A stretch of DNA of 64,000 nucleotides from an uncultured Eubacteriales bacterium (GTDB taxonomy: Bacteria; Bacillota; Clostridia; Lachnospirales; CAZTAY01): positions 3,847 through 67,846 of the forward strand of contig CAZTAY010000001.1 in the NCBI GenBank assembly GCA_964611655.1, written 5' to 3'. Positions within the stretch are counted from its first letter, which is position 1. Each line of letters begins with the position of its first letter. Shown here piece after piece: positions 3,304-61,677 of this stretch. Under the pieces are notes generated by a model. The model had not been told where the DNA came from. It saw nothing but the letters and a program-made list of their open reading frames with translations, and did not search any database. Both the position numbers and the translations under genes were made by a program.

Positions 3304-4860
3304 ATGAAAAGAGCGCTAATAAGTCTTTCTGATAAGACTGGAATTTTAGAGTTGGCAAATGAACTCGATAAATTAGGCTATGAAATTATCTCTACAGGAG
3401 GAACGGCAGAAACTTTAAAACAAGGGGGTATTTCTGTTACTGGCGTATCAGATATTACAGGTTTTCCCGAATGCCTTGATGGCAGGGTTAAAACACTGCA
3501 CCCTGCAATACACGGAGGTCTGCTTGCTAGGCGTGATCTACCATTACACATGAACCAGATTGATGAGCTTAACATAAAGCCTATTGACCTTCTAGTAGTG
3601 AACCTGTATCCTTTTAAAGCAACAATCGAAAAAGATAATGTTCTTTTTGAGGATGCAATTGAAAACATAGATATTGGCGGTCCTGCCATGCTTCGTTCTG
3701 CTGCAAAGAATTTTAAAGATGTACTTGTAGTTACAGATCCTTCCGACTACACTCTTTTAATTGACCAGCTTAAAAAGGGAGTTGTTTCAGAAGAAACAAG
3801 ATTGTATTTTGCACTTAAGGTCTTTGAACATACATCCGCATACGACAGCATGATCGCTGCTTATTTGAAGTCAAAAAGTGGCTCTGTAGGCTTCTCAAAT
3901 CAACTCACTTTGACTTTTGAAAAAGCTCAGGAAATGCGTTATGGGGAAAACCCTCATCAAATGGCTTGTTTTTACAAAGATCCTATTCCCGAAACAGGTT
4001 CTCTTGCACTATTTGAACAACTACACGGCAAAGAACTTTCTTTTAATAATATAAACGATGCAAACGGTGCAATAGAGCTATTAAGTGAGTACGATGAACC
4101 TACAATAATTGCTGTTAAACACGCAAACCCCTGTGGTGTTGGAAGCGCTGAAACTATCTTTGAAGCGTATATGAAAGCATACAATTCAGATAAAACATCT
4201 ATATTTGGAGGAATTGTTGCTTCTAACAGAGAAATAGATAAAAATACTGCTACGGAAATGAATAAAATATTTCTTGAGATAATAATAGCTCCCTCATTCT
4301 CTAAAGAGGCACTAGATATTCTAACAGCAAAACAAAACATACGACTTCTTACGCTGGACTTAGGCTCAAAAAATTCAAGAAAATCTTTATTTGATTTTGA
4401 TATTAAGAGAGTCAGTGGCGGAATCTTAGTGCAAGAGCGAAATCTTTCTCTAGTACCAGAAGAGCTTAACTTTGTCACAAACCGCAAACCATCCCAAGAA
4501 GAGTTAAATGATCTTTTATTTACATGGAAAATGGTTAAACATGTTAAATCAAATGCCATTGCAATAGGTAAAAACAAACAATCAGTAGGCATAGGTCCCG
4601 GTCAAGTTAACAGAATTTGGGCTTGCATACAAGCAATTGAACACGGCAAGGATCACTTGGGTGATGAATACCTAAAAGGCGCAGTAATGGCATCTGATGC
4701 ATACTTTCCCTTCCCAGACTGCGCTACGGAAGCTGCTAAAGCCGGTATAACTGCAATCATATGCCCCGGCGGCTCAAAAAACGATCAGCTTTCAATTGAT
4801 GTTTGCAATGCAAATAATATTGCAATGGTGTTTACCGGAATGAGGCATTTTAAACATTAG
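3304..4860 (+). CDS. purH: bifunctional AICAR transformylase / IMP cyclohydrolase
   Basis: 518-aa ORF with an MGS-like N-terminus (ALISLSDKTG...STGGTA...GRVKTLHP) and a C-terminal AICARFT domain. A GGGGGA RBS lies upstream. Confidence 0.95.
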   Translation: MKRALISLSDKTGILELANELDKLGYEIISTGGTAETLKQGGISVTGVSDITGFPECLDGRVKTLHPAIHGGLLARRDLPLHMNQIDELNIKPIDLLVVNLYPFKATIEKDNVLFEDAIENIDIGGPAMLRSAAKNFKDVLVVTDPSDYTLLIDQLKKGVVSEETRLYFALKVFEHTSAYDSMIAAYLKSKSGSVGFSNQLTLTFEKAQEMRYGENPHQMACFYKDPIPETGSLALFEQLHGKELSFNNINDANGAIELLSEYDEPTIIAVKHANPCGVGSAETIFEAYMKAYNSDKTSIFGGIVASNREIDKNTATEMNKIFLEIIIAPSFSKEALDILTAKQNIRLLTLDLGSKNSRKSLFDFDIKRVSGGILVQERNLSLVPEELNFVTNRKPSQEELNDLLFTWKMVKHVKSNAIAIGKNKQSVGIGPGQVNRIWACIQAIEHGKDHLGDEYLKGAVMASDAYFPFPDCATEAAKAGITAIICPGGSKNDQLSIDVCNANNIAMVFTGMRHFKH

Positions 4861-6268
4861 AATTAAAAAACTCTTTAATAAGATTTAAACCTTTTTCTAT
4901 TTCTTTTTCATTTGCGTTGGCAAATGATATTCTAATGTAATCGTTAAATTCTTCGTCGTTTAAGTTGTATAGGTATCCTGGAGAAATTAACACACCTTTT
5001 TCAAGGAGGTTGTTATGAAGCTTATCTATAACTTCACGCCCTCCTTGAACTTTTGCCCAAATACCTGTACCGCCTTTTGGAGGATTTAAGAGTAATTCAG
5101 ATTTTAGATTTTTGTTCCAACACGAAATAAGAGTTTTATATCTGTTTTCAAGTATGTTAAAAATATTATATTTATGCTCTGCATATGAACCATCCCTAAT
5201 CATTAAATCAACTACCTTTTGAATGATTCCTAGGTCATTGCTAATGTGTTCACTTATCCAGCTTTCCATTAACTTTTTAAGCCTAGGAGGAACTACACAT
5301 ACACCTAGATTTAGACCCGGCAAAAGCATATTGGTCAGATTTTTGTAATATATTACAACATTTTTGTAATCCAGGCTTTTTAGTGTTACTATAGAGCCAC
5401 AGGAATAATTAAAATCACTAAAACTATCATCCTCCAAAATTAAGAAACCATATTTGCTAGCAAGCTCTATAAGTTTTCTTTTGCAAAAATTACTTTGACT
5501 TATACCTGTTGGGGTCTGAAAATACGGTGATATATATAATAGTTTAGGTTTAAATACTTTTGCATACTTTTCAAGCTCTAAAATGTCAATACCTTCATCT
5601 GTCAATGAAATGCCGACCGTTTTTGCCCCTTTTTTTAAAAAAGCACCTGTAATATATGGATTGCACGGTTTTTCTGTTAGAACATACTCTCCTGGTTTTA
5701 TTAATGCATCAGAGATTTGGAACAGTAATTGGTAGATACCCTTTGTTATAAAAATATTTTCTTTATGTGAACTAAAATTAATTTCTTTACCTAACACATC
5801 ATAGCAAACAGATTCTATAAGAGGCTCATAACCAAAGGGATTAACCCCTTTCATACTGTTGCCGCCTTCTTTATCCAGTACATAATTAATTGCTTGCCTG
5901 AACTCTTCCGTAGGAAAAAAGTCCTCCCCTGCGGTTGCTTTAGACAGATTTATTTTACAATTGATATCATCTAAAGTTACAACTCTTTCTTGTTCTAGAT
6001 TAACAACTGTGTTCGCTTTAATGGGAGAGGTATATGTTCCGCTACCCGTAACCGAATAAACCGCTTGCTTACTTAATAAGTATTTATAGGCATTAACAAC
6101 AGTAGAATTGTTTATTTTTAAACTTTTTGACATTTTTCTAATAGGAGGAAGCTTACTGTCAGGAGGAATAGTTCCGTCAGTAATCAATTGTAAAAGAGCA
6201 TCGCCTAGCTGTTGATAAATAGGTTTTTGACTATTCTTATCCAAAAAGACTGAAAAGAAGCTATTCAT
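4850..6268 (-). CDS. MocR/GabR-type regulator (GntR wHTH fused to a class I aminotransferase-like domain)
   Basis: 472 aa. The N-terminus PIYQQLGDALLQLITDGTIPPDSKLPPIRKMSKSLKINNSTVVNAYKYL is a GntR-type wHTH. The remainder is an aminotransferase fold. Its 3' end overlaps the purH 3' end by 11 nt in convergent orientation. Confidence 0.75.
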   Translation of the reverse strand: MNSFFSVFLDKNSQKPIYQQLGDALLQLITDGTIPPDSKLPPIRKMSKSLKINNSTVVNAYKYLLSKQAVYSVTGSGTYTSPIKANTVVNLEQERVVTLDDINCKINLSKATAGEDFFPTEEFRQAINYVLDKEGGNSMKGVNPFGYEPLIESVCYDVLGKEINFSSHKENIFITKGIYQLLFQISDALIKPGEYVLTEKPCNPYITGAFLKKGAKTVGISLTDEGIDILELEKYAKVFKPKLLYISPYFQTPTGISQSNFCKRKLIELASKYGFLILEDDSFSDFNYSCGSIVTLKSLDYKNVVIYYKNLTNMLLPGLNLGVCVVPPRLKKLMESWISEHISNDLGIIQKVVDLMIRDGSYAEHKYNIFNILENRYKTLISCWNKNLKSELLLNPPKGGTGIWAKVQGGREVIDKLHNNLLEKGVLISPGYLYNLNDEEFNDYIRISFANANEKEIEKGLNLIKEFFNSNV

Positions 6269-6344
6269 AATTAGCCCTCCAAACTATTTTAAAAAATCTG
6301 CTCATAACATTGTATACAGTCTTATTAAAAATAATGAAAGGTAA

Positions 6345-6893
6345 ATGATTATGAAAGATTTATCAATGCATGTTTTAGATATTATTCAAAATTCAGTTGC
6401 CGCCGGAGCAAAGAACATTGAGATTCTTATCGACGAAGAAATAAGCAAAGACATTTTAACCATTTGCATCAAAGACGACGGAAAAGGCATGAGCCCTTCC
6501 CTTTTAGCACAAATTCGAGATCCTTTCATTACCAGTAGAACTACCAGAAAAGTCGGTCTTGGAATACCACTATTTGAACAGACCTGTTCTATATCAGCAG
6601 GTGACATTCTGATTGAGTCGGAAGTTGACGTTGGCACAACTGTAACCGCAACGCTTAAACACTCTCACATCGACAGACCGCCTCTTGGTGATATTGGCGG
6701 AACAATGTTTATTCAAATTGTTACAGAACCTGACATTGATTATATTTATAAACATACAATTAATGGGAAATCCTTTGAAATTAAGACAGTTGAAATAAAA
6801 AAGATTCTGGAAGGAATACCATTTTCTGAGCCAAGTGTTATGGAATGGATAAGGTCAAGCATTGAAGAAGGTCTTGAAATGCTAGGTTCTTAG
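6345..6893 (+). CDS. stand-alone GHKL (HATPase_c-like) ATP-binding protein
   Basis: 182 aa. The sequence contains N-box-like DIIQNSVAAGA and G-box-like DDGKGM...GLGIPL. No DHp/HisKA domain is present. The gene is divergent from the MocR gene. Confidence 0.55.
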   Translation: MIMKDLSMHVLDIIQNSVAAGAKNIEILIDEEISKDILTICIKDDGKGMSPSLLAQIRDPFITSRTTRKVGLGIPLFEQTCSISAGDILIESEVDVGTTVTATLKHSHIDRPPLGDIGGTMFIQIVTEPDIDYIYKHTINGKSFEIKTVEIKKILEGIPFSEPSVMEWIRSSIEEGLEMLGS

Positions 6894-6909
6894 GCAATTT
6901 CTTTTTTTT
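6876..6909 (+). terminator. probable intrinsic terminator of the GHKL gene
   Basis: An imperfect hairpin gaaatgc/gcaatttc (one bulge) spans the stop codon and is followed by T8 (6902-6909). Confidence 0.4.
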
Positions 6910-6949
6910 GGTTATTTATTATAAAAGTAAAATTATTATAGATGTTTAG

Positions 6950-6978
6950 TTGTCATAAGTATTATGATATAGTATAAT
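6950..6978 (+). promoter_or_regulatory. sigma-A-type promoter candidate for the rnf operon
   Basis: TTGTCA (6950-6955), a 17-nt spacer, then TATAAT (6973-6978). Confidence 0.5.
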
Positions 6979-6984
6979 ATGTTG

Positions 6985-7309
6985 GTATTTGTTACTTTGC
7001 ATTTATTAGGATAGTGAAAAAAATGCTAAGTAATACGGTTGTTTAAGGGACTGTCTAATATCTCGGCTTTGAGCAAAATTCCAAGATAATTTTGCGCCTA
7101 ATGATGAAGTAGCAACTAGCATAATGACTAAAATTATGTTAGGAGCTGCTATAGAAGCTTGGTGCAAAGTCCTACGGAATTATGCCTGATTGGAGGTATT
7201 AAACAGGTTCAAAGTTGGCAAACAACCTGGATTGCGTGTTGTCCTTGTATTTTATTTCTAAGGACTATGAGGGCAATTAAAAAATTTTCTAAAATTAAGG
7301 AGGAGGAAA
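6985..7309 (+). promoter_or_regulatory. long structured 5' leader of rnfC, class unknown
   Basis: About 325 nt lie between the predicted TSS and the rnfC ATG, with no RBS-preceded ORF. Perfect hairpins occur at 7073-7095, 7116-7142, 7204-7229 and 7241-7265. Confidence 0.35.
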
Positions 7310-8632
7310 ATGCCAGGTTTAACGTTTAAGGGCGGTATCCATCCAAACGAGCGAAAAGGCTTAACCGAGGAATACAAGGTAAGCAGGGTATTGCTTAGAC
7401 CTAAGACAGAAATGATTTTTCCTATGTCTCAGCATATCGGTGCTCCATGCGAACCTACAGTTGCCATTGGTGATAGGGTACTGACAGGACAAAAAATCGG
7501 AGAACCTAAGGCGTATGTATCAGCGCCTGTCCATTCAAGCGTTTCGGGGACGGTGACGGACATTAGGCCTGTTCTAAACGCAACGGGATCAGTTGTAAAT
7601 GCGGTGATAGTTGAAAATGATGGCTTATACGAAGAAATTGAGGGTATGGAGCCAAAGAAGCATTATTCAGAATACACCAAAGAAGAAAAACTTGAAATAA
7701 TCAAAGAAGCCGGAGTTGTGGGACTTGGAGGTGCAGGCTTTCCAACACATGTGAAGCTTAATGTTCCTGCGGATAAAGACATTGATACAGTAATAATCAA
7801 TGCAGCAGAGTGTGAACCTTATCTAACCACTGACTATAGGGTTATGATTGAGGAAGGCGAAAACCTGATTTCAGGTCTGCAAATTATTTTAAGTATTGTA
7901 AGCAGTGCAAAACGTGGTGTTATTGCAATTGAGGATAATAAACCAAAAGCTATTAAGCATCTTAAAGAGCTTGCTAAAGACGTGCCTAATATCGAAGTTG
8001 TGGCAATCAAGACAAAATACCCTCAAGGCTCTGAAAAACAATTAATTTATTCTATTACTAAAAGAGAAGTGCCATCAGGAGGTCTTCCTTCAGATGTTGG
8101 CTGTGTTGTAAACAATGTTGATACAGCTGTTGCTATTTCAAGAGCTTTTATGCAAGGTCGTCCATTAATGCGTAAAATTGTTACTGTTTCCGGTAAAGCA
8201 GTTGTAAATCCCGGTAACTACGAAGTACGTCTTGGAATGACTTTCCGTGATCTGATTGAATTTACCGGTGGACTTAAAGAGGAACCCAAAAAGATTGTTG
8301 CAGGCGGTCCTATGATGGGTGTTGCACTTTACTCTCTTGACGTTCCGATTATAAAAACTTCTGGCGGAATTCTCTGCCTAACCGAAGAAGAAACATATGT
8401 TCCTGAGAACTTCAATTGCATTAGATGTTCAAAATGCGTTCAAATTTGTCCAATGGGTCTTATGCCTCTTTATCTTGACAAGTTTGTTTTAGAGCGTGAA
8501 TTTGATAATTTTAAAAAGTATAACGGTTTGGACTGTGTGGAATGTGGAAGTTGCTCTTATGTTTGTCCGGCAAAGAGAAGTTTGGCTCAATCAATAAGGT
8601 CAACAAAAAAAGAGCTGCTCAAGAAAAAGTGA
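7310..8632 (+). CDS. rnfC: Rnf electron-transport complex subunit C
   Basis: 440 aa with N-terminus MPGLTFKGGIHP, the NADH-binding-like GLGGAGFPT motif and two C-terminal 4Fe-4S motifs (CIRCSKCVQICP, CVECGSCSYVCP). A strong RBS AAGGAGGAGG lies upstream. Confidence 0.93.
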   Translation: MPGLTFKGGIHPNERKGLTEEYKVSRVLLRPKTEMIFPMSQHIGAPCEPTVAIGDRVLTGQKIGEPKAYVSAPVHSSVSGTVTDIRPVLNATGSVVNAVIVENDGLYEEIEGMEPKKHYSEYTKEEKLEIIKEAGVVGLGGAGFPTHVKLNVPADKDIDTVIINAAECEPYLTTDYRVMIEEGENLISGLQIILSIVSSAKRGVIAIEDNKPKAIKHLKELAKDVPNIEVVAIKTKYPQGSEKQLIYSITKREVPSGGLPSDVGCVVNNVDTAVAISRAFMQGRPLMRKIVTVSGKAVVNPGNYEVRLGMTFRDLIEFTGGLKEEPKKIVAGGPMMGVALYSLDVPIIKTSGGILCLTEEETYVPENFNCIRCSKCVQICPMGLMPLYLDKFVLEREFDNFKKYNGLDCVECGSCSYVCPAKRSLAQSIRSTKKELLKKK

Positions 8633-8645
8633 GGGATGAATTAAA

Positions 8646-9608
8646 ATGAGTGATTCAACATATTATATGACTTCGACGCCCCATACAAGTTCGCCGGTAA
8701 ATACGCAAAACATAATGAAGCACGTTATAATAGCGCTTTTACCCGCAACGTTAATGGGTGTCTATATCTTTGGAATGTCTGCTCTTCTTGTAATTCTTGT
8801 TTCAGTTGCTTCTTGCGTAATTGCAGAATATGCATATAATAAAGCGCTTGGAAAAAAGCAGACCGCTGGAGATCTTAGTGCAGCATTAACAGGACTTTTA
8901 CTTGCAATGAACTTGCCTTCTAGCGTACCAATGTATGTTCCTGTTGTGGGTAGTATTTTTGCAATTATTGTTGTAAAACAACTTTTTGGCGGCATTGGTC
9001 AAAACATTGTTAACCCTGCGCTTGCAGCCAGAGCGTTTTTGCTTGTAAGTTATCCTACTGAAATGACAACATGGCCTGTGCCCTTTGATGCAGTAACAGG
9101 TCCAACACCTCTTGCGCTTTTAAAAACAGGTCAGCTTGTTCCCGGTCAAGAGGACTATATCTCTGCCTTTGTAGGAACCATTGGTGGATGTATCGGTGAA
9201 ACTTGTGCAATAGGTCTTATACTAGGCGGACTTTATCTTCTTTTTAAAGGTATTATAAACTGGAGAACTCCAGTGTTCTATATTGGAACTGTATTTATTC
9301 TTTCTTCATTGCTACGTCAAGGCGGTATGATGATCGGATTGTATGATCTTATTGTTGGCGGACTTATGCTTGGTGCATTTTTCATGGCAACAGACTATAC
9401 AACTTCACCTGTTACATATACAGGAAAAATAATTATGGGTATAGGTTGCGGTATTTTAACCGTTGTAATAAGGGTTTACGGCGGCTATCCTGAAGGTGTT
9501 TCTTATTCCATCTTGCTTATGAACCTTATTGTTCCTCTTATTGACAGGTTTGTAAGACCAAAAGTATTTGGGGTCTCCCGCGAAAAGAAAAAGGAGGCTA
9601 AAGCATAA
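8646..9608 (+). CDS. rnfD: Rnf complex subunit D (membrane, FMN-binding)
   Basis: 320-aa polytopic membrane protein of the NqrB/RnfD family, including the FFMATDYTTSP motif. It sits at the expected position in the rnf operon. Confidence 0.9.
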   Translation: MSDSTYYMTSTPHTSSPVNTQNIMKHVIIALLPATLMGVYIFGMSALLVILVSVASCVIAEYAYNKALGKKQTAGDLSAALTGLLLAMNLPSSVPMYVPVVGSIFAIIVVKQLFGGIGQNIVNPALAARAFLLVSYPTEMTTWPVPFDAVTGPTPLALLKTGQLVPGQEDYISAFVGTIGGCIGETCAIGLILGGLYLLFKGIINWRTPVFYIGTVFILSSLLRQGGMMIGLYDLIVGGLMLGAFFMATDYTTSPVTYTGKIIMGIGCGILTVVIRVYGGYPEGVSYSILLMNLIVPLIDRFVRPKVFGVSREKKKEAKA

Positions 9609-10171
9609 TGAAAGAAATAATTAAAGCAGGCTTAATTTTATTTATAATTACTGCTGTTGCAGGTATCGCACTTGGTTTTGTATACGATGTTACAAAAGAA
9701 CCTATTCAGAAACAAGCTGAGATTGAAGAACAAACTGCTCTCAAAAAGCTAATTGAAACAGCCGATAATTTTAACGGCGATGAAATAGCTGCTCCAGAAG
9801 GAATTGAAAAAATATTTGTAGCATACGATTCTTCTAACAGTGCTATTGGATATGTAGTAAGATTAGTTTCAACAGGTTATGGCGGCCCAATATCAATGCT
9901 TGTTGGTATTGACACATCAGGGTCGGTTACAGGTATTCAAATACTAAACCATACTGAAACGCCTGGTCTTGGAGCTAATGCCACAGAAGAAAAATTTAGA
10001 AACCAGTTTGTAGGTAAAACGGAATTCCCTCTTGTTGTTACTAAGACTGGTGCAACTGCTCCTAATGAGATTGATGCTATTACCAGCTCAACCATTACTA
10101 CAACAGCAGTTACCAAAGGTGTTAACACTGCCTATGAATGGTACAAAACCCATGAAGGAGGCGGAAATTAA
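9608..10171 (+). CDS. rnfG: Rnf complex subunit G (FMN-binding)
   Basis: 187 aa with an N-terminal TM helix and an FMN_bind motif (DAITSSTITTTAV). Its start overlaps the rnfD stop as TAATG. Confidence 0.9.
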   Translation: MKEIIKAGLILFIITAVAGIALGFVYDVTKEPIQKQAEIEEQTALKKLIETADNFNGDEIAAPEGIEKIFVAYDSSNSAIGYVVRLVSTGYGGPISMLVGIDTSGSVTGIQILNHTETPGLGANATEEKFRNQFVGKTEFPLVVTKTGATAPNEIDAITSSTITTTAVTKGVNTAYEWYKTHEGGGN

Positions 10172-10776
10172 TGAGTTTAACGAAAATTTTTAAAAACGGT
10201 TTAGCTAACGAGAACCCTGTCTTTGTTCAGGTAATCGGTATGTGTCCCGTTCTTGCGGTTACAACAAGTGCTATAAACGGTCTTGCTATGGGTCTTGCTA
10301 CTACTGCCGTTTTGACTTGTTCAAACCTTGTAATCTCAATGATTAGAAAGTTTGTATCTCCTAAAGTAAGAATACCTGCTTTCATTGTTGTTATTGCAAC
10401 TTTTGTAACATTGGTAGACTTCTTAATGAAGGCATATACACCTGGCTTAAACAAAGCATTGGGGCTTTTTATTCCCCTTATTGTTGTTAACTGTACAATC
10501 CTTGCAAGAGCTGAGTCATTTGCCTCAAAAAACGGCGTTGTAAATTCATTTGTTGACGGTGTTGGTATGGGTCTTGGATTCACTATCGCTCTGTTATGTA
10601 TGGGTATAGTACGTGAAATATTAGGAAACGGTTCCGTATTTAACTTTACTATCTTACCTGATGCAGTTCATAACACATTGGTTATGATTATGGCACCGGG
10701 CGCCTTCTTTACACTGGGCTTTCTTATGGCACTCATCGCCTATGTTGGCGCTAAGAAAAAGGAGGCTCATGAATAA
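10171..10776 (+). CDS. rnfE: Rnf complex subunit E
   Basis: 201-aa membrane protein of the RnfA/E (NqrD/E) family. It overlaps rnfG as TAATG. Confidence 0.9.
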   Translation: MSLTKIFKNGLANENPVFVQVIGMCPVLAVTTSAINGLAMGLATTAVLTCSNLVISMIRKFVSPKVRIPAFIVVIATFVTLVDFLMKAYTPGLNKALGLFIPLIVVNCTILARAESFASKNGVVNSFVDGVGMGLGFTIALLCMGIVREILGNGSVFNFTILPDAVHNTLVMIMAPGAFFTLGFLMALIAYVGAKKKEAHE

Positions 10777-11351
10777 TGAATCTTATTCTAATTGCGCTTA
10801 GCGCATCACTTATTAATAACTTTGTACTTTCAAGATTCTTAGGTATCTGCCCATTCTTAGGCGTTTCCAAGAAGATTGAGACAGCAACCGGTATGGGTGT
10901 TGCGGTTATGTTCGTTATGACCCTTGCATCTGCTGTTTGTTTCCTTATCAATCAGTTCTTGCTTGTACCTTATGACATGGCATACCTTTATACTATAGCT
11001 TTCATACTTGTAATTGCTTCACTTGTACAGGTAGTTGAAATGTTTATTAAAAAATCAAGCCCTACTCTTTACAAGGCGCTTGGTGTTTATCTTCCGCTTA
11101 TTACTACTAACTGTGCTGTTCTTGGTGCTACTGTATTAAACAAGGACGCCGGTTATGATTTAATCGAGTCAGTTGTAAACGGACTTTTTGCAGCAGTAGG
11201 TTTTACTATTGCAATTGTACTTTATGCCGGAATCAGAGAAGCAACGGAAAAGAACGATATTCCTAAATCGTTTAGGGGTTTCCCAATTGCACTTTTAACG
11301 GCAGGACTTATGTCTATTGCTTTTATGGGCTTTTCAGGCCTTATTAAATAA
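10776..11351 (+). CDS. rnfA: Rnf complex subunit A
   Basis: 191-aa membrane protein paralogous to RnfE. It overlaps rnfE as TAATG. Confidence 0.9.
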   Translation: MNLILIALSASLINNFVLSRFLGICPFLGVSKKIETATGMGVAVMFVMTLASAVCFLINQFLLVPYDMAYLYTIAFILVIASLVQVVEMFIKKSSPTLYKALGVYLPLITTNCAVLGATVLNKDAGYDLIESVVNGLFAAVGFTIAIVLYAGIREATEKNDIPKSFRGFPIALLTAGLMSIAFMGFSGLIK

Positions 11352-11365
11352 AGGGGGAGAAAAGT

Positions 11366-12175
11366 ATGCCAATAGTAATAATAGGCCCCCTTGCTGTTAT
11401 TGGGGGATTAGGACTTTTATTCGGATTAGCGCTTGGTGTTGCAGATAAATTTCTCGCTGTTGAAGTTGATCCGAAGATAGATGCTTTAAAAGACGCTGTT
11501 CCTGGCGCAAACTGCGGCGGTTGCGGTTTTGCAGGCTGTGGTGCTTTTGCAGAAGCTGTATTTAGCGGTGATGCAAAGACCAGCGGATGTCCTGTTGGTG
11601 GTCAATCAGTTGCTGATAAGCTTGCTGAAATCATGGGCGTTGAAGCCGGTGCACTGGCGAAGAAGGTGGCGCATGTTAAATGCGGCGGCTCTTGCGACAA
11701 GGCAAAAATAAGATATGATTATGCAGGTCTTAAAGACTGTGTTGCTGCAACAATGCTTGCAGGCGGCAGTAACAGGGATTGTAATTTTGGATGTTTAGGA
11801 CTTGGCACATGTCAGGATGTATGTCCCTTTGATGCAATTAATGTTGTAAACGGTTTAGCATTTGTTGATCCTGACAAATGTACTGCATGTGGAATGTGTA
11901 TTGATGCATGTCCTAAAGCACTCATTGATTTAGCTAACTATGAAAGCCTTGTAACGGTTAACTGTAATTCAACCGAAAAGGGTAAAGAAGTAAAAGAAAA
12001 GTGCGAAGTCGGCTGTATTGCTTGCCGCTTATGCGTTAAGGCTTGCCAGTATGATGCGATTGTGTTTGAAAATAATCTTGCCAAAGTTGACTACGACAAA
12101 TGTACTAATTGTGGTGACTGCGTGCTTAAGTGCCCTACAAACACCATCAGTTTTTCAGGACGCCGAAAAGGATGA
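11366..12175 (+). CDS. rnfB: Rnf complex subunit B (ferredoxin-like, polyferredoxin tail)
   Basis: 269 aa with an N-terminal TM helix, the CGGCGFAGCGAFAEAV motif and several CxxCxxCxxxCP 4Fe-4S motifs. Confidence 0.9.
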   Translation: MPIVIIGPLAVIGGLGLLFGLALGVADKFLAVEVDPKIDALKDAVPGANCGGCGFAGCGAFAEAVFSGDAKTSGCPVGGQSVADKLAEIMGVEAGALAKKVAHVKCGGSCDKAKIRYDYAGLKDCVAATMLAGGSNRDCNFGCLGLGTCQDVCPFDAINVVNGLAFVDPDKCTACGMCIDACPKALIDLANYESLVTVNCNSTEKGKEVKEKCEVGCIACRLCVKACQYDAIVFENNLAKVDYDKCTNCGDCVLKCPTNTISFSGRRKG

Positions 12176-33722: not shown

Positions 33723-33877
33723 GTTTTCACCTCCGTATCAAATAATAAACCCTCATATCAAAACAAGACATGAGGGTATACAAAATCCAATATCAATAAC
33801 CTCGGTTGGCAGGAATGTTCCTTTTACGCAAAGCACCAACTGTCTTAGGTGGTTATTCAATTTTATTATTGCGAACG
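33723..33877 (-). promoter_or_regulatory. ribosomal protein L10 leader (autoregulatory attenuator)
   Basis: A leader of about 155 nt lies between the rplJ promoter and its ATG. It ends in the hairpin ccctcat/atgaggg (33750-33776), followed on the minus strand by TTTATTATTT. The position and architecture match the Firmicute L10 leader, but I could not align it to a model. Confidence 0.55.
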
Positions 33878-33883
33878 AATGTA

Positions 33884-33912
33884 ATTCTACAACAAATAAG
33901 GACTTGTGTCAA
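33884..33912 (-). promoter_or_regulatory. sigma-A promoter for rplJL
   Basis: The minus strand reads TTGACA (33912-33907), a 17-nt spacer, then TAGAAT (33889-33884). It lies directly after the rplA stop. Confidence 0.6.
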
Positions 33913-53865: not shown

Positions 53866-56800
53866 CTATTTTTTACTTATTCTCATGAGAAGTTCGCCGG
53901 ATTTAACTGACTGCCCTTCATTTACATAGACATCTTCAATTACGCCTTCAGTCCTTGCTACAACGCTGGTTTCCATTTTCATTGCTTCGATTACCACAAG
54001 AAGCTGATTCTTTTCTACTTTATCGCCTTTTTTAACATGAATCTTTGAAATGGCACCGGGTATGCTTGAACCGACTTGGGTTTCATCAAGGATGTCAGCA
54101 TATTGCACTTTATCATCAACAACTTTGACGTTTTTGTCTTCTACAAGCACGTCACGTCTTGCACCGTTTAATTCAAACTGCATATATCTTGTGCCGTCGT
54201 TGTTGTGTTCTCCTTTTCCTATGTATTTAATAATAAGAGTCTTTCCTTTTTCTATTGATATTTCAGTTGATTCATTCCTTGCCATACCCATAAAGAATAC
54301 ATGGGATTCCATATGACTGATGTCACTGTACATTTCACGTCTTTTAATGTATTCCTCAACAACCTTAGGGTATAAACACCAGCTAATTGCGTCCCTCATA
54401 CTAGTTTTTTCAGTTATACTTTTTAAATTTTCTAAAACTTCATCAAAGTTTATAGGGGCTAAATGTTCACCTGGCCTTGATGTAATAGGCTCTTCTCCCT
54501 TTAAAACAATTTTTTGAAGTTCTTTTGGGAAACCAAACGCCGGCTGACCCATCATACCCTTAAAATAACTTACTACAGAATCAGGATAATTATATGCAGC
54601 TCCCTTTTCAAGTATGTTTTCGGCATTTAGGTCATTTTGTACCATGAATATAGCTAAGTCGCCAACCATTTTTGAAGAAGGCGTAACTTTTACTATATCA
54701 CCAAGAAGCTTATTAACTTCTCTGTACTTATCTTTAACGTCATCAAAACGGTGTCCAAGGCCAAGGCTTTCAACCTGTGGTTTAAGGTTAGTATACTGTC
54801 CACCCGGAATCTCAAGCTTATAAATTTCTGTTTGAGGAGTGTGAATATCTGCTTCAAACTCTTTATAATACGGGCGTACGTCTTCCCAATAATCGGACAA
54901 TTTTTGCAGTGAATCAAGGTCAATCTGTGTATCTCTTTCAGTCAAATCAAGAGCTGCCACAAGTGAGTTCATTGACGGTTGACTTGTAAGAGAGCTCATA
55001 GATGAAATTGCTGTATCTACAATGTCAACTCCTGATTCTGCCGCTAACATATAAGCTGCAATCTGGTTTGCTGTTGTGTCATGGGTATGAAGATGTATAG
55101 GCATACCCACTTCCTCTTTAAGAGCTTTTACTAACTTCTTAGCAGCATATGGTTTTAACAGACCCGACATGTCTTTAATACAAAGAATATGCGCTCCTCT
55201 TTTTTCAAGCTCTTTTGCAAAATCAACATAATATTTAAGTGAGTATTTATCTCTGTTTGGATCAAGGATATTTCCTGTATAACAAACGGTAGCTTCAACT
55301 ACCTTGCCTGCTTTTGCAACTTCTTCAATAGCAAGCTCCATATTAGGAAGCCAGTTTAATGAATCGAATATTCTGAAAATATCAATTCCACTTCTTGCAG
55401 CTTCTTTTATAAATTCTTTGATTAGGTTATCTGGATAACTGCTGTATCCAACTGCATTTGAACCTCTAAATAGCATTTGGAAAGGTATATTAGGGATTCT
55501 GCTTCTCAGTTCATCAAGACGCACCCATGGTGATTCTGTTAAAAAGCGGTATGATGCATCAAATGTTGCTCCGCCCCACATTTCAAGAGAAAAACAATCT
55601 TTAAGGACATGAGCAGTAGCGTTTGCAATTGTTACCATATCCCTAGTACGAACACGCGTCGCCATAAGAGACTGATTTGCATCCCTAAAAGTTGTATCTG
55701 TTATTAATAATTTTTTCTGATCTAAAATCCAGTTTTTAAATTTTTCAGGACCGTTTTTATCTAAAAATTGTTTTAGTCCTACAGGCGGTTCGCCTTTAAA
55801 CTCTGGCACTCTAGGGGATAGATATTCTTTCTTGTTCTTGCTTTCAGGTTTATCAAGTATAAGTCCGCCTATATATGTAAGTACCTTTGTGGCTCTATCC
55901 TTTGATTCAACTATTTCGAATAAGGAAGGTGTTTCGTCAATGAACTTTGTATGGCATTTTCCTTCCATAAAAGTTTCGTTTGCCAAAATATTATTTAAAA
56001 ATGAAATATTGGTTTTAACGCCTCTTATACGAATTTCTGAAACGGATCGTAACATTTTACGAACAGCGCCTTCAAAGGTTCTATCAAGTGTTGTAAGCTT
56101 AACTAAAAGACTGTCGTAGTATGGAGTTATTTCAGCGCCTACGAATGCATTCCCAGCATCAAGCCTCACACCATAACCGCCGCCAGATCTATACGTAGTA
56201 ATAATACCTGTGTCAGGAGCAAAATTGTTAAGAGGATCCTCAGTTGTGATACGGCATTGTATTGAGTATCCTGTTAAGTGAACATCCTCTTGAGAGTTGA
56301 TGCCAATGCTAGGTGAGGATAGTTTTTCGCCATGAGCAATTGCAATTTGAGCTTTTACAATGTCAATACCCGTTACCATTTCTGTAACTGTATGCTCGAC
56401 CTGAATTCTTGGGTTCATTTCAATAAAATAATGGTTGCCGTGTTTATCAACTAAAAACTCTACTGTTCCAGCATTAACATAGCCAACAGCTTTTGCAATT
56501 TTAACAGCATCTTCATGAATTTTAGCACGCTTTTCTACTGGAATCGTAAAGGCGGGGGTATATTCCACTACTTTTTGATAGCGTCTTTGAACGGAGCAGT
56601 CTCTTTCAAACAAATGGACAATGTTACCGTAAGAGTCTGCTAGGATTTGAACTTCAACGTGCTTTGGTTCTTCCAGGTATTTCTCCATAAATATATCATC
56701 GCTGCCAAAAGCTTTCAGTGATTCACTTTTAACTGTGGATAAAGCTGTACCCATTTCGTCCGGGCTGTTAACCAGGCGCATACCTCTACCGCCGCCGCCT

Positions 56801-57309
56801 GCCGCCGCTTTTAGAATAACAGGATAACCAAATTTCTCGGCATATTCAAGTGCTTCTGATGTTGAAGCAATAGGGTTATCCATTCCATTTATAACCGGTA
56901 CTCCACATTCAATTGCAACCTTTTTTGCCATAAGCTTATCGCCCATTTTTGCAAGGATATCAGATGGAGGACCTATGTATACAATGCCATTATCTTCACA
57001 GGCTTTTGCAAGATTTGGATTTTCAGACAAAAAACCATAACCGGGGTGAATTGCTGTTGCTCCCCTTTTCTTTGCAAGGTCAATAACCAAGTCAATGTCT
57101 AAATAAGCTCCAAGTGGGCTTTTATTCTCTCCGATTAAATAAGCCTCATCCGCTTTTGTCCTGAAAATATTATATTTATCCTCTTTTGAATACATTGCAA
57201 TCGTATTTAGACCTATGTCATAACAAGCTCTGAAAATACGAATCGCAATTTCTCCCCTGTTTGCTACTAATACCTTTTTCTTTGCATTACTTACCTTTGA
57301 ATCGTTCAT
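53866..57309 (-). CDS. pyc: pyruvate carboxylase (biotin carboxylase, carboxyltransferase and biotinyl domains)
   Basis: The ATG at 57309 follows GAGGTGG, whereas the ORF track extends to 57366. The sequence contains KKVLVANRGEIAIRI, an ATP-grasp domain, an HMGL-like CT domain and the biotin attachment site IEAMKMET. Confidence 0.95.
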   Translation of the reverse strand: MNDSKVSNAKKKVLVANRGEIAIRIFRACYDIGLNTIAMYSKEDKYNIFRTKADEAYLIGENKSPLGAYLDIDLVIDLAKKRGATAIHPGYGFLSENPNLAKACEDNGIVYIGPPSDILAKMGDKLMAKKVAIECGVPVINGMDNPIASTSEALEYAEKFGYPVILKAAAGGGGRGMRLVNSPDEMGTALSTVKSESLKAFGSDDIFMEKYLEEPKHVEVQILADSYGNIVHLFERDCSVQRRYQKVVEYTPAFTIPVEKRAKIHEDAVKIAKAVGYVNAGTVEFLVDKHGNHYFIEMNPRIQVEHTVTEMVTGIDIVKAQIAIAHGEKLSSPSIGINSQEDVHLTGYSIQCRITTEDPLNNFAPDTGIITTYRSGGGYGVRLDAGNAFVGAEITPYYDSLLVKLTTLDRTFEGAVRKMLRSVSEIRIRGVKTNISFLNNILANETFMEGKCHTKFIDETPSLFEIVESKDRATKVLTYIGGLILDKPESKNKKEYLSPRVPEFKGEPPVGLKQFLDKNGPEKFKNWILDQKKLLITDTTFRDANQSLMATRVRTRDMVTIANATAHVLKDCFSLEMWGGATFDASYRFLTESPWVRLDELRSRIPNIPFQMLFRGSNAVGYSSYPDNLIKEFIKEAARSGIDIFRIFDSLNWLPNMELAIEEVAKAGKVVEATVCYTGNILDPNRDKYSLKYYVDFAKELEKRGAHILCIKDMSGLLKPYAAKKLVKALKEEVGMPIHLHTHDTTANQIAAYMLAAESGVDIVDTAISSMSSLTSQPSMNSLVAALDLTERDTQIDLDSLQKLSDYWEDVRPYYKEFEADIHTPQTEIYKLEIPGGQYTNLKPQVESLGLGHRFDDVKDKYREVNKLLGDIVKVTPSSKMVGDLAIFMVQNDLNAENILEKGAAYNYPDSVVSYFKGMMGQPAFGFPKELQKIVLKGEEPITSRPGEHLAPINFDEVLENLKSITEKTSMRDAISWCLYPKVVEEYIKRREMYSDISHMESHVFFMGMARNESTEISIEKGKTLIIKYIGKGEHNNDGTRYMQFELNGARRDVLVEDKNVKVVDDKVQYADILDETQVGSSIPGAISKIHVKKGDKVEKNQLLVVIEAMKMETSVVARTEGVIEDVYVNEGQSVKSGELLMRISKK

Positions 57310-57416
57310 TTTCCACCTCACAATTTCTAGTTCTTGAATACCGAAAGTCCAAAGCAATTGCAGCACAATTAATTTGACTCTCGTTTAGTACATTCTAATC
57401 ATACAGAATATACTGA

Positions 57417-57483
57417 TTTGAAATCTAAATTGCAGGATATTGCACAGCTAAAGCCGGCAATATCGTGCCTTATAGATTTCAAA
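57417..57483. repeat. 67-bp nested imperfect palindrome upstream of pyc
   Basis: The outer 11-bp arms are tttgaaatcta/tagatttcaaa. The inner 8-bp arms are gatattgc/gcaatatc (57436-57464). Both pairs are perfect. Confidence 0.6.
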
Positions 57484-57527
57484 CCGGTATTAGAGCCTTT
57501 TTTGAGACCTTTTAAAGTTAATGGCTC

Positions 57528-60315: not shown

Positions 60316-61677
60316 TTATCCAAGATGATTTTCAATAAGCAATGCTAATTCTTTGGCTTCGCTATTGATTTTTTCTATGTCTTTTCCTTCGATCATTACT
60401 CTAACTAAAGGTTCAGTTCCTGATGGCCTTACTAAAACCCTGCCTTTGTTTTTATAGTTGTCAATAAGCCTATTAATTTCATTTTGAACAGGTTTACATT
60501 CAGATAGTTTATACTTGTTTCCATTCTTTACTATTGCGTTTACCAACACCTGTGGCAAAGATTCCATTATTGACGCAAGCTCTGAAAGTTTTTTGCCTGT
60601 TTGTTTCATGATATTAAGCAATTGAATTGCTGTTAAAATTCCATCACCTGTTGTGTTATGTTCGAGAAAAATAATATGGCCTGACTGTTCTCCTCCAATA
60701 TTAATGCCTTTTTCCAGCATTGCCTCAAGAACATATCTGTCACCCACATTAGTTAATTCAGTTTCAATACCCTTTTCCTCTGCCATTAGAAAGAAGCCAA
60801 GGTTAGTCATTACAGTAACCACTATTTTATTGTTTTTCAGTCTGTTTTTTTCTTTCATGAAGTTTGCGAATATTGCTAATAGCTTATCGCCGTCTATTAT
60901 ATTACCCAATTCATCAACGGCAAGACAGCGGTCAGCATCTCCATCAAAGGCAAAACCTACATCTGCATTGGTTTCTTTAACAAATTTAACAATTGAGTCC
61001 AAATGTGTAGAACCGCAACCTTTGTTAATATTAATGCCGTTTGGTTGGTTATTTATCACCCTGACACTAGCACCTAGCTCCGAAATTGCAAAAGGGGCAA
61101 TTGTATATGCTGCGCCGTTTGCGCAATCAAGAGCAACCTTAATGCCAGATAAGGAATCATCTGTAGTTGTTTTTATAAAATCAACATATTCAATTTTCGC
61201 CCGTTCATTTTCAATCTTCCTTCCAATATTTACACCAGAAGGCATAGGCAAATTGTTGTATTTTTCATCGTCAAGCAAAATCTCTTCGATTTCGTTCTCA
61301 ATATCATCAGAGAGTTTAAAACCTAGTTCATTGAAGATCTTGATGCCGTTGTATTCAAAAGTATTATGAGAGGCAGAAATAACAACCCCTGCATCCATAT
61401 TGTATTTTTTAACCAAATACGCAATACCTGGCGTCGGAATAACTCCTGCACAAATTGCATCAACACCCATAGAGCAAATTCCTGCAACAATTGCTGATTC
61501 TAACATATGACCTGAAATTCTTGTATCAGCGCCAACTATTATTTTAGGCGTTTTTTCACCTTGTTTATGCTCAGTTATAACATAGGCGCTAACCCTGCCA
61601 ACTTTATATGCAAGTTCCGCAGTTAACTCTATATTAGCAACTCCTCTAATTCCGTCTGTTCCAAATAACTTACCCAT
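60316..61677 (-). CDS. glmM: phosphoglucosamine mutase
   Basis: The ATG at 61677 follows AGGAGG and gives MGKLFGTDGIRGVAN. The active-site loop is SASHNTFEYNGIK. The ORF track start at 61749 is probably upstream read-through. Confidence 0.95.
   Translation of the reverse strand: MGKLFGTDGIRGVANIELTAELAYKVGRVSAYVITEHKQGEKTPKIIVGADTRISGHMLESAIVAGICSMGVDAICAGVIPTPGIAYLVKKYNMDAGVVISASHNTFEYNGIKIFNELGFKLSDDIENEIEEILLDDEKYNNLPMPSGVNIGRKIENERAKIEYVDFIKTTTDDSLSGIKVALDCANGAAYTIAPFAISELGASVRVINNQPNGININKGCGSTHLDSIVKFVKETNADVGFAFDGDADRCLAVDELGNIIDGDKLLAIFANFMKEKNRLKNNKIVVTVMTNLGFFLMAEEKGIETELTNVGDRYVLEAMLEKGINIGGEQSGHIIFLEHNTTGDGILTAIQLLNIMKQTGKKLSELASIMESLPQVLVNAIVKNGNKYKLSECKPVQNEINRLIDNYKNKGRVLVRPSGTEPLVRVMIEGKDIEKINSEAKELALLIENHLG

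Follow-up and report, generated by a model that had tools for sequence, protein, structure and literature searches.

In many anaerobes, Rnf determines both the ferredoxin/NAD+ balance and the ion gradient. To our knowledge, little is understood about the regulation of rnf apart from rseC and a report that translation is repressed in Clostridium ljungdahlii. In the DNA analysed here, a stretch of 64,000 nucleotides that we refer to as the window, an rnfCDGEAB operon (7310-12175, + strand) is preceded by a gap of 416 nt (6894-7309) that is among the window's longer non-coding stretches. What does this gap contain, and could an RNA transcribed from it act on the expression of the operon? An earlier note on this DNA had described the region as a structured 5' leader of no recognised class and had proposed a riboswitch or attenuator sensing redox or ion state.

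Genomic context of the rnf operon

The window is AT-rich (G+C content 35%) and Clostridia-like in sequence. The rnf operon was assigned on the basis of its ORFs, of RnfC homologues and of the same gene order in relatives. Upstream of it lie purH (3304-4860, + strand), a MocR/PdxR-like GntR regulator (4850-6268, - strand) and the gene of a stand-alone HATPase_c protein of 182 aa (6345-6893, + strand; Pfam HATPase_c), which borders the gap. A terminator-like hairpin (6876-6901) overlaps the stop codon of the HATPase gene and is followed by a T8 run (6902-6909). The earlier note had seen both, and had placed the promoter of the rnf transcript behind them; however, the terminator is weaker than it was described, with a predicted stem of 8 bp containing a bulge and a folding energy of -4.4 kcal/mol, and the terminator scan did not call it. 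Read-through from the HATPase gene is therefore plausible, and this gene may be co-transcribed with rnf.

Stand-alone HATPase_c proteins of about 180 aa are encoded directly 5' of rnfC not only in the window but also in two of the relatives' loci (L022, 2170-2703; L028, 1724-2269), and in a further locus (L029) the HATPase_c gene (2029-2520) overlaps rnfC. The closest homologues of the window protein are found within [FeFe]-hydrogenase clusters (L030 and L032, 2501-3058), in which the HATPase_c gene is located one small ORF upstream of the gene of a NuoF-like subunit. In both settings, a gene encoding Complex1_51K and SLBB domains lies near and downstream of HATPase_c, in the case of rnfC directly adjacent to it. 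The best relative of the HATPase protein is 58% identical and adjoins an ORF other than rnfC.

Promoter and coding potential

The only strong promoter site within 6300-7800 is of the sigma-70 type, TTGTCA-17-TATAAT (6950-6978, + strand), and agrees with the consensus at 11 of 12 positions, which confirms the near-consensus promoter reported earlier. Sites of equal quality occur nine times in the 64 kb, compared with 3.7 expected. An Rfam-confirmed L10 leader (RF00557, 77 bits; 33735-33912, - strand) and its promoter, one of the nine and an 11/12 match directly upstream (33884-33912), served as positive control for the promoter scan. From the position of the -10 box (6973-6978) we infer a transcription start at about 6985, giving a predicted leader of approximately 325 nt up to the rnfC ATG at 7310. 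Elsewhere in the window, two perfect 12/12 promoters (TTGACA-17-TATAAT, - strand, 1065-1093 and 1257-1285) are located 190 nt apart, upstream of a minus-strand ORF whose start is near 999 and whose other end lies beyond the window.

The spacer of the rnf promoter harbours a perfect 6-3-6 palindrome, TCATAA-gta-TTATGA (6953-6967), which by its sequence could be a repressor operator. There is no sign of a regulon, and a recurring operator was rejected, the sole other near-match in the window (61355-61369) lying within a coding region. A Rex-controlled redox operon, for which a Rex operator would be expected at the promoter or in the leader, was likewise rejected: 6894-7309 contains no Rex operator (TTGTTAA-N4-TTAACAA-like, with up to 3 mismatches), and Rex-like matches across the whole window number 14 versus 18.5 expected.

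A strong Shine-Dalgarno sequence, AAGGAGGAGG (7297-7306, + strand), precedes the rnfC start codon (7310-7312). A CsrA reading was considered: GGA motifs, counted by eye in the sequence, occur 10 times compared with approximately 4 expected, but three of them fall within the Shine-Dalgarno sequence. The longest ATG ORF in the gap comprises 21 codons (7124-7189), as stated previously; longer ORFs starting with TTG encode 56 aa (+ strand) and 53 aa (- strand). None of the gap ORFs has a usable Shine-Dalgarno sequence or a match in Pfam or NCBIfam, and a small protein encoded in the leader was rejected on these grounds. With the promoter match and no credible ORF, the stretch is most likely a 5' untranslated region, in agreement with the earlier note.

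The 53-aa minus-strand ORF (7167-7006) raises the alternative that the region is a separate small gene, encoding an sRNA, an antisense RNA or, via this ORF, a type I toxin-antitoxin system. The ORF does contain a hydrophobic core, IAAPNIILVIMLVATSSLGA, and a weak promoter-like site lies on the minus strand (7276-7249), but the ORF starts with TTG, is devoid of a properly spaced Shine-Dalgarno sequence and matches no family. Likewise, although type I toxin mRNAs are often highly structured, the structure described below loses much of its strength on the minus strand, and neither strand carries a terminator by which an sRNA could end inside the leader. We consider a separate small gene to be very improbable.

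Predicted structure of the leader

The structural evidence consists of thermodynamic predictions from a single sequence. Folding of 6985-7345 gives an anatomy of three elements. Hairpin A (6990-7035, + strand) consists of 14 bp and an apical stem, has a mean pair probability of 0.89-0.93 and begins about 5 nt past the transcription start predicted from the -10 box. Hairpin B (7037-7227, + strand) is a rod-like, imperfect hairpin of approximately 68 bp over 191 nt with pair probabilities of 0.9-1.0; its core extends over 7048-7210, its apical stem (7116-7142) carries a 7-nt loop, and the consensus fold comprises 68 pairs with no branch point. The helices of hairpin B (10, 10, 9, 8, 6 and 6 bp) are separated by small loops, so that the longest uninterrupted ones measure 9-10 bp, and seven of its ten symmetric mismatches oppose two purines, a tandem G·A/A·G at 7103-4/7154-5 among them. 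Module C (7230-7278, + strand), in which a helix (7230-7235/7273-7278) encloses a hairpin (7241-7265; GUCCUUG/UAAGGAC), is predicted with a pair probability of only about 0.47, and the z-score of 7200-7309 is only -1.6.

Two structural candidates were rejected. A K-turn or box C/D motif, considered for AUGAUGA together with the tandem G·A (7102-7107), is contradicted by 4-5 extra nucleotides on the opposite strand and by the lack of a direct run into the C-stem. A 6S-like RNA would have a central bubble, which the fold lacks, and has no Rfam match here.

The four perfect local helices listed in the earlier note can all form, but the predicted ensemble retains only those at 7116-7142 and 7241-7265, the first as the apical stem of hairpin B. 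The other two (7073-7095 and 7204-7229) are outcompeted by the long-range pairs 7089-7098/7161-7170 and 7037-7044/7220-7227. The complementary boxes that had been seen as competing with each other are mostly absorbed into hairpin B, and a single conformation dominates the ensemble (mean base-pair distance of 11 over 176 nt).

These predictions bear on the possibility of a new riboregulator, in which hairpin B would sense a ligand or ion (e.g., NAD(H) or Na+) or bind a regulatory protein and, through alternative pairings among the GGGAC, GUCCU and AGGAC boxes and the Shine-Dalgarno sequence, would tie the translation or stability of the rnf mRNA to redox or ion state. The purine-rich internal loops are possible binding sites, and UCCUU (7242-7246) has two possible partners, AAGGA at 7260-7264 and the AAGGA of the Shine-Dalgarno sequence (7297-7301). 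However, the predicted pairing and accessibility of the Shine-Dalgarno sequence vary with the stretch folded and are not robust in this respect, and both the single dominant conformation and the lack of a multi-helix junction speak against such a switch. A rod with small loops and without branch points does not resemble known aptamers and is more in keeping with a duplex-type element for processing or stability. A terminator-type expression platform is missing as well: no intrinsic terminator was found on the + strand in 6300-7800, and no U-run follows 7037-7227 or 7241-7265. With no terminator between the promoter and rnfC, transcription attenuation is out.

Stability and strand preference

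The earlier description of the leader as strongly structured is supported by a z-score of -4.9 for 6985-7325 versus shuffled sequence. The leader core reaches values of about -6 to -8; 7040-7215 (-6.1, 100 shuffles) is the most extreme among the 724 strand-tiles of 176 nt in the window, in a tiling whose phase was set on the hairpin and thus favours it. Hairpin B folds with -68.4 kcal/mol on the sense strand and with -49.4 kcal/mol on the opposite strand (z-scores of -6.1 and -3.9, respectively). Its frame contains 9-10 G·U pairs versus one C·A opposition (binomial p of about 0.02), and its G+C content of 0.39 exceeds that of its flanks (0.18-0.32), the promoter part of the gap having 18% and the pooled non-coding sequence 31%.

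Some of these properties would also be expected of a palindromic insertion that has no dedicated function and is merely co-transcribed, be it a miniature inverted-repeat element, a REP/ERIC/Correia-like element or some other palindrome at the DNA level. Hairpin B is one long imperfect palindrome, it folds on the opposite strand too, and its G+C content differs from that of the flanks. On the other hand, the decay of a DNA palindrome should give G·U and C·A in similar numbers, and the G·U excess therefore argues against neutral decay, as does the advantage of 19 kcal/mol for the sense strand. The boundaries at 7037 and 7227 show neither a target-site duplication nor clean terminal repeats. Taken together, the stability, the sense-strand bias, the type of mismatch and the G+C content of the predicted structure favour a feature at the RNA level, on the sense strand. 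A highly significant, sense-biased and G+C-enriched structure in the long leader of an energy-metabolism operon is also a point in favour of a riboregulator.

A second strongly folded spacer is located before the pyruvate carboxylase gene (53866-57366, - strand). This spacer (57367-57527, 160 nt) exceeds the rnf leader in predicted folding strength (-59.6 kcal/mol, z-score of -8.5), forming an outer stem that surrounds two hairpins, one of them with 34-bp arms (57410-57490), and has no Rfam match. Two leaders with such strong predicted structure in one window suggest a general habit of the organism rather than a dedicated sensor.

Search for RNA families and related leaders

Searching the leader region against Rfam 15 (E-value up to 10) returned noise only, with best scores of 15-20 bits compared with gathering thresholds of 47-90 and E-values of 1.6-9. 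This agrees with the earlier note, which had recognised no known RNA class. The L10 leader, away from rnf, is the sole Rfam family in the window at gathering thresholds, and a scan for tRNA and tmRNA found none.

None of the collections queried yielded a close relative of this lineage. The best RnfC relatives are 54% identical in species-representative genomes and 49% in JGI metagenomes; in a set of 5.8 billion proteins, the best ones reach 71%, 63% and 61%. The contig with the most similar RnfC (L021, 71%) begins 66 nt before rnfC, and the remaining stretch shares only the ribosome binding site with the window. The next (L022, 63%) retains the order GntR / HATPase / rnfC, while its spacer, 297 nt long, has an unrelated sequence and is unstructured (z-scores of -0.5 to -0.8). 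The other spacers before rnfC differ greatly in length: in L029 the two genes overlap by 20 nt, and elsewhere the spacers measure 60, 102 (L024), 138 (L023), 231, 234 and 310 nt. Folding of the relatives' spacers revealed no common architecture (z-scores of +0.5 to -3.0). BLAST and nhmmer searches for a leader homologue in 23 loci and a search with a single-sequence covariance model in 24 sources gave the self match only, and hairpin B is absent from the spacers of all fetched relatives, including the syntenic loci L022 and L028. As the relatives' spacers are short, overlapping or unstructured, the role of the hairpin is not needed for rnf expression in general. The leader element thus appears, as far as the sequence data go, to be lineage-specific. 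A lack of conservation in relatives had been named in the earlier note as evidence against its proposal; such a lack is what we found, although it weighs little given that the relatives are all distant (RnfC at most 71% identical).

The 310-nt spacer belongs to a locus with an RnfC of 54% identity (L001) and contains a promoter-like site whose -10 box is TG-extended (2830-2858) and, about 60 nt before rnfC, a G+C-rich terminator-like hairpin with a T-run (2914-2933). Its sequence is unrelated to the window leader. The hairpin and T-run could be an attenuator.

The absence of hairpin B from all relatives' spacers and the variable length of these spacers are what a palindromic insertion would leave behind. 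Such an element would, however, be expected in further copies, and neither BLAST nor the covariance model detected a second one in the 64-kb window; collections of plasmid, phage and viral sequences contained no match either. We regard a palindromic insertion as the main rival explanation, albeit an unlikely one. For the riboregulator, the search results also point both ways: in its favour, no known family accounts for the structure, while the structure is not conserved in the rnf loci fetched and the literature searched contained no rnf-associated riboswitch. A new riboregulator is, in our view, improbable, and the redox- or ion-sensing riboswitch or attenuator of the earlier note finds no support, considering the lack of a terminator, the rod-like fold and the lack of any related leader.

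Discussion

We tentatively propose, as the best of the explanations considered and a quite possible one, that the region is the 5' leader of the rnfCDGEAB mRNA, specific to this lineage, and controls how stable the message is or how it is processed or translated. We infer the transcription start, the processing, the action after transcription and the regulatory effect from the predicted promoter and fold. According to this hypothetical scenario, (i) transcription would proceed from about 6985 off the promoter at 6950-6978, possibly with additional read-through from the HATPase gene; (ii) hairpin A would lie next to the 5' end, with the very stable hairpin B right after it, followed by a loose, A/U-rich stretch of about 80 nt with the strong Shine-Dalgarno sequence; (iii) hairpin A would shield the transcript against 5'-end-dependent attack; (iv) hairpin B would, through its duplex, either be acted on by a double-strand-specific factor such as RNase III or stand in the way of such a factor; and (v) cleavage at hairpin B would determine the half-life of the rnf mRNA and its translation, or would uncouple rnf from the HATPase gene. 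In its predicted fold, hairpin B has the geometry of an RNase III substrate, a roughly coaxial duplex of at least about two helical turns. Its longest uninterrupted helices measure only 9-10 bp, however, which makes RNase III cleavage a guess.

As a long, hairpin-rich 5' leader, the rnf leader is of a known kind, whereas the specific RNA is new and currently an orphan. RNase III processes long structured 5' leaders such as those of Escherichia coli adhE, rnc and pnp and the cspA 5' UTR of Staphylococcus aureus. Like the rnf leader, these are several hundred nucleotides long, belong to metabolic or housekeeping mRNAs, and are dominated, ahead of the ribosome binding site, by an extended imperfect duplex that involves no ligand. 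In contrast, they have no sequence relationship to the rnf leader, whose predicted helices are broken every 3-10 bp and which comes from an uncultured, Clostridia-like lineage. Hairpin A is comparable to the 5'-terminal stabiliser stem-loops of Firmicutes mRNAs, such as the Bacillus subtilis aprE leader and ermC, in its position about 5 nt from the predicted 5' end and in a geometry that would block 5'-end-dependent decay, the difference being that the rnf start is placed from the -10 box only.

With the riboswitches, T-boxes and attenuators of Rfam 15, the rnf leader shares a long operon 5' UTR, G+C enrichment and strong predicted structure; it differs from them in having no Rfam match, no terminator/antiterminator, no junction and no conservation. 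Transcribed palindromic repeats, i.e., miniature inverted-repeat elements of the ERIC, Correia and RUP type, resemble hairpin B in their size of 100-200 nt, in being palindromic throughout, intergenic and co-transcribed, and in being missing from orthologous spacers. Unlike them, hairpin B is present as a single copy in 64 kb, shows no terminal repeats or target duplication, and has a strong strand bias.

A functional comparison for a leader acting after transcription is the rnf operon of C. ljungdahlii, which is transcribed from a start site of its own 5' of rnfC and for which translational control (repression) of rnfC is documented (PMC6203783); its regulation also involves rseC (PMC9124969). 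This control of rnfC after transcription is a precedent that fits the proposed role of the leader. The two loci share a start upstream of rnfC, observed in C. ljungdahlii and predicted in the window, and regulation at the post-transcriptional level, proposed for the window (PMC6203783, PMC9124969). They differ in that rseC takes the place of the HATPase gene upstream in C. ljungdahlii, and no long hairpin leader has been described there.

In summary, the region upstream of rnfC appears to be an mRNA leader specific to its lineage rather than a demonstrable new sensor RNA. As one sequence with no relatives, the locus nominates a candidate only. Its practical value is that of a well-defined test object, with a promoter, two hairpins and a ribosome binding site within 360 nt, and of a query for future sister genomes. 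If the proposal is true, a cis-acting RNA controlling rnf would constitute a new regulatory layer for this operon, in a deep-branching uncultured lineage of the Clostridia.
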